Assembly (NCBI RefSeq): GCF_058153355.1
Contig: NZ_CM177019.1
Reading direction: 5' to 3' (one strand)
DNA length: 64,000 nt
A model generated the notes under the pieces. That model saw nothing but the letters and a program-made list of their open reading frames with translations, was not told the DNA's origin and ran no database searches. Below are positions 13,668 to 20,495 of this stretch, in pieces. Made by a program: the position numbers and the translations under genes. The first letter of the stretch is position 1. Each line of letters starts with the position of its first letter.

Positions 13668-16330
<2,663 letters not shown>

Positions 16331-16332
16331 TC

Positions 16333-18349
<2,017 letters not shown>

Positions 18350-18382
18350 TTTGTACACCGTCCCGCACTCAATCGCCAAAAA

Positions 18383-18609
18383 GAAAAAAGCCAGCAGATA
18401 ATCACTGCTGGCGTGGCGATTAACACCAATACTCAGTCACACATGATGTCCGCAAATCAGTAGTCAGAATGACTCCCCTCCCACTGCATCAGTTCTTCAA
18501 GCATAGTTAATCGTTGTGGGACGCTTAACCAACGCAACCAGCACAACGTCGCTGTCGCGGTAAAATAGTGCTGATAAAACTGATGCATGGGACACCTCCT
18601 TGCTTCATC
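18383..18609 (-). ncRNA. sgrS: SgrS small RNA (glucose-phosphate stress)
   Basis: The minus strand reads GATGAAGCAAGGAGGTGTCCCATG...TGACTGAGTATTGGTGTTAATCGCCACG CCAGCAG tgattat CTGCTGG CTTTTTTCTTTTT. It contains the sgrT ORF, the conserved 3' base-pairing region and an intrinsic terminator, and is divergent from sgrR. Confidence 0.8.
18457..18588 (-). CDS. sgrT: SgrT small protein (PtsG inhibitor) encoded within SgrS
   Basis: 43-codon ORF MHQFYQHYFTATATLCWLRWLSVPQRLTMLEELMQWEGSHSDY with an AGGAGG Shine-Dalgarno sequence; near-identical to K-12 SgrT as I recall it. Confidence 0.8.
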   Translation of the reverse strand: MHQFYQHYFTATATLCWLRWLSVPQRLTMLEELMQWEGSHSDY

Positions 18610-18676
18610 GTTAGGAATTATTGACTTAATATAGGGAAAATAAAATTGCTGACTTTTGCGCAGGAGTTCCCCTTTT

Positions 18677-20332
18677 ATGCCATCTGCTCGTCTGCAACAA
18701 CAGTTCATCCGCCTGTGGCAATGCTGCGAGGGTAAATCGCAGGACACAACGCTCAACGAACTAGCGGAGTTATTGAGCTGCTCCCGTCGTCATATGCGCA
18801 CCCTGCTCAATACCATGCAGGATCGCGGCTGGCTGACGTGGGAAGCGGAGGTCGGGCGCGGTAAACGCTCACGTTTAACATTCCTCTATACCGGGCTGGC
18901 GCTTCAGCAACAGCGGGCGGAAGACTTACTGGAGCAGGATCGTATCGATCAGTTGGTGCAACTGGTTGGCGACAAAGCGGCTGTGCGGCAAATGCTGGTT
19001 TCTCATCTGGGGCGTACCTTCCGTCAGGGGCGGCACATCCTGCGCGTTCTCTACTATCGTCCGTTGCGCAATCTGCTGCCCGGCAGTGCATTGCGCCGTT
19101 CCGAAACCCATATCGCCCGGCAAATCTTCAGTTCGCTAACGCGCATAAATGAGGAAAATGGGGAACTGGAAGCAGACATCGCCCACCACTGGCAGCAAAT
19201 ATCACCGCTTCACTGGCGCTTCTTTTTGCGTCCAGGAGTCCATTTTCATCATGGTCGTGAACTGGAAATGGACGATGTGATCGCCTCTTTAAAACGAATC
19301 AATACGCTGCCGCTCTATTCGCATATTGCTGACATTGTGTCGCCGACGCCCTGGACGCTGGATATCCATCTCACGCAACCGGACCGCTGGTTACCGTTAC
19401 TGCTGGGGCAAGTTCCGGCGATGATCCTGCCACGAGAATGGGAAACCCTCAGTAACTTTGCCAGCCATCCCATCGGAACGGGTCCTTATGCAGTGATCCG
19501 CAACAGCACCAATCAACTGAAAATTCAGGCATTCGATGACTTCTTCGGTTATCGCGCATTAATCGACGAAGTAAATGTCTGGGTTCTGCCAGAAATTGCC
19601 GACGAGCCAGCCGGCGGTCTGATGCTAAAAGGGCCGCAGGGCGAGGAAAAAGAGATTGAAAGTCGGCAGGAGGAAGGTTGCTACTATTTACTGTTCGACA
19701 GCCGCACCCACCGTGGGGCGAATCAGCAAGTCAGGGACTGGGTAAGTTATGTGCTTTCTCCAACTAATCTGGTCTATTTCGCCGAGGAACAATACCAGCA
19801 ACTCTGGTTTCCGGCTTATGGACTGCTCCCCCGCTGGCATCATGCCCACCCGGCGCAGTGCGAAAAACCTGCCGGGCTGGAAAGCCTCACCCTGACCTTT
19901 TATCAGGATCATATTGAGCATCGGGTGATTGCCAGGATCATGCAGCAGATTCTGGCAAGTCATCAGGTCACACTTGAAATTAAAGAGATCAGCTATGATC
20001 AGTGGCACGAAGGAGAGATCGAGAGCGATATCTGGCTTAACAGCGCCAACTTTACGCTGCCGCTGGATTTTTCGCTGTTCGCGCACTTGTGCGAGGTGCC
20101 GCTGCTCCAACACTGTATTCCGATCGACTGGCAAGCCGACGCCGCCCGCTGGCGCAATGGCGAAATGAATCTGGCGAACTGGTGCCAGCAACTGGTCGCC
20201 AGCAAAGCAATGGTGCCGCTCATCCACCACTGGCTGATCATTCAGGGGCAACGCAGTATGCGCGGCCTGCGCATGAACACTCTCGGCTGGTTCGATTTTA
20301 AATCCGCGTGGTTTGCGCCACCGGATCCATGA
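18677..20332 (+). CDS. sgrR: Transcriptional regulator SgrR
   Basis: Canonical start [69 protein letters not shown] (551 aa), with a solute-binding-protein-like C-terminal domain. Confidence 0.93.
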
Positions 20333-20359: not shown

Positions 20360-20455
20360 CTAACGCCGTTCTCAACGGGGTGCCACGCAGACGCGTGCGC
20401 TGAGAAAATACCCGTCGAACCTGATCCGGATAACGCCGGCGAAGGGATTTGAGGC
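20360..20455 (+). promoter_or_regulatory. TPP riboswitch (thi-box) in the thiBPQ leader
   Basis: Conserved thi-box elements ...ACGGGGTGCC...CTGAGA...ACCCGTCGAACCTGATCCGGATAACGCCGGCGAAGGGA immediately upstream of thiB. Confidence 0.75.
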
Positions 20456-20495
20456 TCCTTCTCAAGTCCTTTGCCACTCTTCTTTGAGGTGCAAA

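Follow-up and report, generated by a model that had tools for sequence, protein, structure and literature searches.

Why does a leuD-sgrS-sgrR locus that otherwise follows the arrangement of Escherichia coli K-12 have no setA, and is this a peculiarity of one strain? In the K-12 MG1655 RefSeq sequence, 27 nt separate sgrS (77367-77593) from the 1179-nt setA (77621-78799), beyond which lies the convergent leuD (78848-79453), an order that a preliminary description of the DNA studied here had also given. The primary paper on the co-transcription of setA with sgrS is reportedly that of Sun and Vanderpool, from 2011. Two papers that cite this study and extend it experimentally report that transcription reading through the sgrS terminator continues into setA, which starts 27 bp beyond it (PMC9765468; PMC4509938); the two genes are thus co-transcribed, as the preliminary description had said. 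In the 64-kb stretch analysed here (“the window”), sgrS and leuD are neighbours. Our reading, to which we give a probability of about 0.9, is that the window carries a setA-less allele of the Escherichia leuD-sgrS-sgrR locus, derived from an ancestral layout with setA by an early deletion of ~1.2 kb.

Gene order and the spacer between leuD and sgrS

The features of the locus, with the evidence for each in brackets, are:

13668-15239, + strand: leuA, preceded by the leu leader and followed by leuB, leuC and leuD, all on the + strand
17744-18349, + strand: leuD (201 aa), last gene of leuABCD (ORF list; tblastn and alignment to K-12 and 22 other species)
18350-18382, no strand assigned: spacer of 33 nt from the leuD stop to the end of the SgrS model (sequence)
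18378-18412, - strand: intrinsic terminator of sgrS, with 8-bp stem, 7-nt loop and U6-C-U5 (terminator scan)
18383-18609, - strand: sgrS, full length, CFT073/O157 allele type (Rfam RF00534, alignment)
18423-18448, - strand: base-pairing region of SgrS, conserved, 26 nt (alignments)
18457-18588, - strand: sgrT ORF inside sgrS, 43 aa (translation)
18677-20332, + strand: sgrR, divergent activator of sgrS, 551 aa (ORF; annotation of homologous genomes)
20366-20465: TPP riboswitch, after sgrR and followed by thiBPQ

leuD stops at TAG (18347-18349; sequence and ORF list), and its end reads AFMR-TAG in the window as in Citrobacter, Salmonella and Kluyvera, against AFMN-TAA in K-12. The spacer, TTTGTACACCGTCCCGCACTCAATCGCCAAAAA, is exactly the 33 nt that had been estimated as the distance from sgrS to the convergent leuD stop; because the T-run of the sgrS terminator reaches 18378, the real SgrS 3’ end lies ~28-34 nt from that stop. 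The gap holds no coding sequence in the list of ORFs of at least 40 aa, the only one touching it being an 88-aa antisense ORF inside leuD, and the spacer has no hairpin of its own. A tblastn search of the 64-kb window with K-12 SetA found no SetA-like coding sequence (best match 33 aa, E 0.77, chance level). Aligned with K-12, the window is 1221 nt shorter at 18352-18377 and has neither setA nor a separate leuD/setA terminator; the K-12-type operon, with a setA ORF ~27 nt past the sgrS terminator on the same strand, is absent. The two inferences drawn earlier from the letters, that no transporter ORF lies in this interval and that the cis-linked efflux component is therefore missing, are thus borne out, and alignment of the leuD-sgrR interval with K-12 and other genomes, which the preliminary description had proposed as a check, confirmed the setA-less junction.

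Everything else that makes up the locus in K-12 is in place: divergent sgrR and sgrS, sgrT within sgrS, the 26-nt base-pairing region, an intrinsic terminator with a long U tract, and as flanks leuD and the thiBPQ operon with its TPP riboswitch. The SgrS model RF00534 matches end to end (model positions 1-232, 226.3 bits against a gathering score of 37, E 7e-65), and the sequence so identified has the adjacent divergent sgrR, the conserved base-pairing region and the poly-U terminator of an SgrS. The base-pairing region is identical in both allele types described below and in the aligned Citrobacter and Salmonella loci. SgrR is 97% identical in amino acid sequence to that of K-12 (tblastn). 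The terminator stem is formed by GCCAGCAG (18390-18397) and CTGCTGGC (18405-18412), followed on the minus strand by the tail UUUUUUCUUUUU (18389 down to 18378); the hairpin and T-run noticed at first sight are therefore also what the terminator scan calls. Between the convergent leuD and sgrS no terminator-like element other than this hairpin (-14.1 kcal/mol, against -12.6 in K-12) is present. Promoter-like matches at 18373-18402 and 18420-18447 are at chance level (2 found, 1.4 expected) and were disregarded.

The differences from K-12 lie in the 3’ third of sgrS, the loop and tail of its terminator, the C-terminus of sgrT and the last leuD codon, and identity to K-12 falls to 86.9% over the alignment segment that starts at 18377 and holds the sgrS region. 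The 43-aa sgrT ORF runs from an ATG at 18588 to 18457, and the closest complete genome has sgrT annotated at the corresponding position. Its product, MHQFYQHYFTATATLCWLRWLSVPQRLTMLEELMQWEGSHSDY, has a C-terminus unlike that of K-12 (…GLMQWDDRNSES), ending in …EELMQWEGSHSDY where K-12 has …EGLMQWDDRNSES. The putative ribosome-binding site upstream is AAGGAGGTG, against AAGGGGGTGCCCC in K-12, where the sequence folds into a stem-loop that inhibits sgrT translation (PMC2760817). The surrounding region (18586-18600) reads AAGGAGGTGTCCC, without the GGGGG/CCCC stem reported to block sgrT translation in K-12. SgrT of the window begins M-H-Q, and all other aligned Escherichia sequences begin M-R-Q.

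Two alleles among complete E. coli genomes

The allele of the window is that of the CFT073/O157:H7-type sgrS locus. In ST131 and O157:H7 the junction is identical and the gap equally long, and identity over the divergent block described below is 97-98%. The identity that we computed between K-12 SgrS and SgrS of the CFT073/O157 type (88.0-88.4%) matches the 88% published by Horler and Vanderpool in 2009 (PMC2760817). The same paper reported the loss of the sgrT start codon in O157 and marked setA in its synteny figure, so the polymorphism has been on record since then. The setA-less allele is thus already known, described and ordinary, and nothing about the window is unusual in this respect. 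We found no literature on setA and sgrS by phylogroup; only example strains are cited. The window differs from O157:H7 in two points: its sgrT start codon is intact where O157:H7 has ATT, and it has no espY2 insertion where O157:H7 carries espY2 between sgrR and thiB. In O157:H7 strain Z910 (locus L083, 7821-8390 and 5845), this type III secretion effector gene lies between sgrR and the TPP riboswitch/thiB, and the sgrT start is likewise ATT.

How common each arrangement is was determined in 5426 complete E. coli genomes, 5399 of which match the leuD-to-sgrR segment of the window. An allele-specific probe of 136 nt (18350-18485), which spans the junction and the 3’ end of sgrS, matches 2157 genomes at 95-100% identity (580 at 99% or more, 1577 at 95-99%, one at 100%). 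The K-12-type junction probe matches 3242 genomes, 3239 of them at 99% identity or more, and K-12 setA DNA is found in 3241, with a median of one copy per genome. Since 2157 and 3242 add up to 5399, that is, to every genome with the locus, two alleles split E. coli into ~40% and ~60%, and the type of sgrS 3’ end predicts almost perfectly whether setA is present. Annotation gives the same picture. In an evenly spaced sample ranked by match, the first 24 records (O157:H7 and O25b:H4-ST131 among them) match in one contiguous piece with no setA annotated, and the next 35 (among them K-12, C600 and O104:H4) have an annotated setA and a match split into two pieces over 3810 nt.

These counts bear on two other explanations. 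Seen against K-12 only, the missing gene might be a recent deletion in this strain or an artefact of its assembly; a junction present at 95-100% identity in 2157 complete genomes, and identical in three other Escherichia species, refutes this, and we leave it practically no probability. Equally, since the view from the window extends over 64 kb only, setA might have been relocated, the stress response keeping its transporter in trans. With 3241 setA-positive genomes against 3242 with the K-12-type junction and a median of one copy, genomes with the setA-less junction virtually never have setA at another site (one or two genomes at most), which makes relocation very improbable here. Related genes are another matter: setB is present in 5413 and setC in 4281 of the 5426 genomes, and a SET-family paralog very probably exists elsewhere in this strain.

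Two further records deserve mention. E. coli HH97 (NZ_CP116409.1, ~4263573-4263770) combines a K-12-type sgrS 3’ end with a 79-nt (7%) remnant of setA and is a case of independent secondary loss on the setA-positive allele. Three plasmid records carry a leuD-setA-sgrS-sgrR segment, presumably as F-prime-like or captured chromosomal segments.

The indel is embedded in a block of two-allele divergence, delimited by a mismatch histogram and the allele-specific probes:

18344-18493, no strand assigned: two-allele block carrying the indel

Its contents are the final amino-acid codon of leuD (R in the window, N in K-12), the spacer, the terminator of sgrS, the stretch between that terminator and the base-pairing region, and the sgrT C-terminus. 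Over its ~150 aligned positions K-12 differs from the window type (window, O157 and ST131) at 40, against 0-9 (mostly 0-4) differences per 50 nt in the flanks. Within its sgrS part (18394-18493), each 50 nt of the O157 and ST131 sequences holds 0-1 mismatches to the window and 11-15 to K-12; E. albertii has 3 mismatches to the window in total. The flanking sgrR of O157, by contrast, is 98-99% identical to that of K-12. Near-identical flanks around a divergent block indicate that recombination has homogenised the flanks and has not homogenised the block around the indel.

A second divergent block is found at the 3’ end of sgrR (19853-20253), where K-12 is 86-89% identical to the window, ST131, O157 and Escherichia sp. 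MOD1-EC7003, and the window is 94.8% identical to ST131; the C-terminal region of K-12 sgrR appears to represent a separate allele, unconnected with the setA block. More widely, none of the complete E. coli genomes is a close match to the window: the best identities are 98.0% over leuD-sgrR (17744-20332) and 98.3% over 30-50 kb, mainstream strains reaching ~96.9%, and its leu operon is 99-100% identical to that of strain 2017-02-2CC (AP027764). Judged from these identities, the DNA appears to come from a divergent or mosaic lineage of Escherichia outside the set of complete genomes.

Other species and the origin of the setA-less allele

Whether setA was lost or gained can be read from other species. 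A scan with SgrR of the window, one genome per species, followed by tblastn with LeuD, SetA and SgrR, gave 80 loci, a set that excludes E. coli itself, E. fergusonii, E. marmotae, E. ruysiae and S. enterica subsp. enterica. setA is present in 77 of the 80, and the three loci without it are all Escherichia. In every one of the 76 non-Escherichia loci (76/76), which include Citrobacter, Salmonella arizonae/diarizonae, Enterobacter, Klebsiella, Raoultella, Kluyvera, Leclercia, Atlantibacter and Buttiauxella, setA adjoins sgrS on the sgrS strand, upstream of sgrR; LeuD falls within the fetched stretch in 59 of the 76, and setA lies between leuD and sgrR in all 59. The Citrobacter, S. arizonae/diarizonae, Enterobacter and Klebsiella operons are syntenic with the window in sgrR, sgrS and leuD and differ from it in having setA after sgrS and a hairpin or REP-like element between setA and leuD, neither of which the window has. 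K-12 SetA is 74-91% identical to SetA of the 76 loci, in step with SgrR and LeuD (for Citrobacter and Salmonella, 87-89% for SetA, 85-88% for SgrR and 88-92% for LeuD), which fits vertical descent of the setA-positive allele. From the occurrence of setA at this site in all 76 loci, the state of the window appears to be a derived deletion of ~1.2 kb, and the sequence comparison indicates that sgrS-setA linkage is ancestral for Enterobacteriaceae.

The three loci without setA, those of E. albertii, E. whittamii and Escherichia sp. E1V33, each have a leuD-to-sgrR gap of 328 nt, and their junctions align with that of the window base for base. The window itself has a gap of 327 nt and AP027764, the closest E. 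coli genome, one of 330 nt by the same measure; the window thus has the junction sequence and the ~328-330-nt type of gap that characterise the setA-less allele, a junction also found in O157:H7, ST131 and AP027764. Its presence in E. albertii, E. whittamii and E1V33 makes the deletion ancient. MOD1-EC7003, on the other hand, carries the K-12-type allele with setA.

The opposite history, in which absence of setA is ancestral and K-12 and its relatives gained the gene by insertion beside sgrS, would account for its absence from E. albertii, E. whittamii, E1V33 and many E. coli lineages, and the near-invariance of the setA-positive allele within E. coli is what a recent arrival would leave. We nonetheless give a gain little credence, since neither the position nor the orientation of setA varies among the 76 non-Escherichia loci, and its identities track those of SgrR and LeuD.

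Under the deletion reading, the ancestral layout would have been sgrR, a divergent unit of sgrS and setA, a terminator and the convergent leuD. An early deletion of ~1.2 kb in Escherichia would have removed setA together with the 27-nt leader in front of it and the terminator between leuD and setA, so that ~31-33 nt of spacer remained. It would have arisen once; both alleles still segregate, each in more than one Escherichia species. On sequence grounds 18350-18382 would be the scar, at the site occupied in setA-positive genomes by the leuD/setA terminator, setA and the setA leader. In a blastn-short comparison with 84 loci, the spacer and its edges match setA-less Escherichia loci only, and no setA-positive locus, and they show no remnant of the deleted sequence, no microhomology and no mobile-element scar.

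The later history may be less simple. The setA-positive allele is very uniform in E. coli, and the setA-less allele is more diverse and is the E. albertii type; one lineage may thus have kept setA all along, or K-12-like lineages may have regained it from a different lineage of Escherichia. Such re-acquisition within E. coli is possible and compatible with the deletion reading. In the alignment of the short terminator region, the window type (TTAATCGCC.CGCCAGCAG…CTGCTGGCTTTTT) is near the Citrobacter form and the K-12 type resembles Salmonella, likenesses that a simple single-lineage history does not predict.

Further side observations concern other species. The region between leuD and setA varies in length from 31 to 139 nt (loci L018 and L023 of Salmonella diarizonae/arizonae; L007-L009, L013 and L051), and in several species it holds REP-like palindromes (GCCGGATG…, TGTAGGCCGGATAAGGCG); this variable length and these palindromes mark the region downstream of leuD as a hotspot for small insertions. 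Locus L041 (CACSKA010000010.1), titled Chryseobacterium sp. 18061, is an Enterobacter-like leuD-setA-sgrS-sgrR locus with SgrR 80% and SetA 87% identical to the Escherichia queries, and its assembly is probably mislabelled or contaminated.

The sgrS hairpin and the meaning of the allele

With setA, the hairpin that divides leuD from setA in setA-positive species has gone from the window, so the sgrS hairpin is now the sole structured element between the two convergent units. On the strand of the leu mRNA it forms part of a larger fold:

18371-18421, + strand: extended hairpin, an outer 8-bp stem around the sgrS terminator stem (fold; any function is conjectural)

The arms of the outer stem are AAUCGCCA (18371-18378) and UGGCGAUU (18414-18421), and the stem is preserved in E. 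albertii via a G-U pair. The extended hairpin folds at -25 kcal/mol (z -3.2), and none of 200 shuffled sequences was as stable. No U-run follows it on the plus strand, and the terminator scan calls no plus-strand terminator there. We therefore set aside, as speculation, the idea that the sgrS hairpin serves leuD as a bidirectional terminator. Because a plus-strand U-run and terminator call are both lacking, mutual antisense read-through between the leu operon and sgrS is possible, as far as the sequence can indicate.

A more far-reaching reading, which we regard as improbable, is that of an ancient two-allele cassette, both alleles of which are kept by selection across Escherichia species boundaries. 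The cassette may comprise the 3’ end and terminator of sgrS, the sgrT C-terminus, the presence or absence of setA, the leuD terminator and the last leuD codon. In its setA-less form, the leu operon and sgrS may share one hairpin that lacks a U-run on the leu strand, so that leuABCD read-through is antisense to SgrS and SgrS read-through is antisense to leuD, coupling leucine biosynthesis to the sugar-phosphate stress response. If true, such a coupling would exist in ~40% of E. coli.

On the early-deletion reading, SgrR would still drive SgrS and SgrT. All three are intact, so the regulatory side of the glucose-phosphate stress response should be functional; transcription that passes the sgrS terminator would yield no transporter mRNA and would run antisense into leuD. 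The K-12 sgrS-setA operon, the model for terminator read-through from a small RNA and for the glucose-phosphate stress regulon, is the arrangement of only ~60% of the complete E. coli genomes. setA is missing from O157:H7, ST131 and several sister species, and their SgrS 3’ end and SgrT C-terminus are different; with setA absent and the SgrS 3’ end different, conclusions on the role of SetA and on the purpose of the read-through are not transferable to those lineages. The main value of the finding is thus one of caution: what the window carries is a frequent, ancient and documented allele rather than a peculiarity of one strain.
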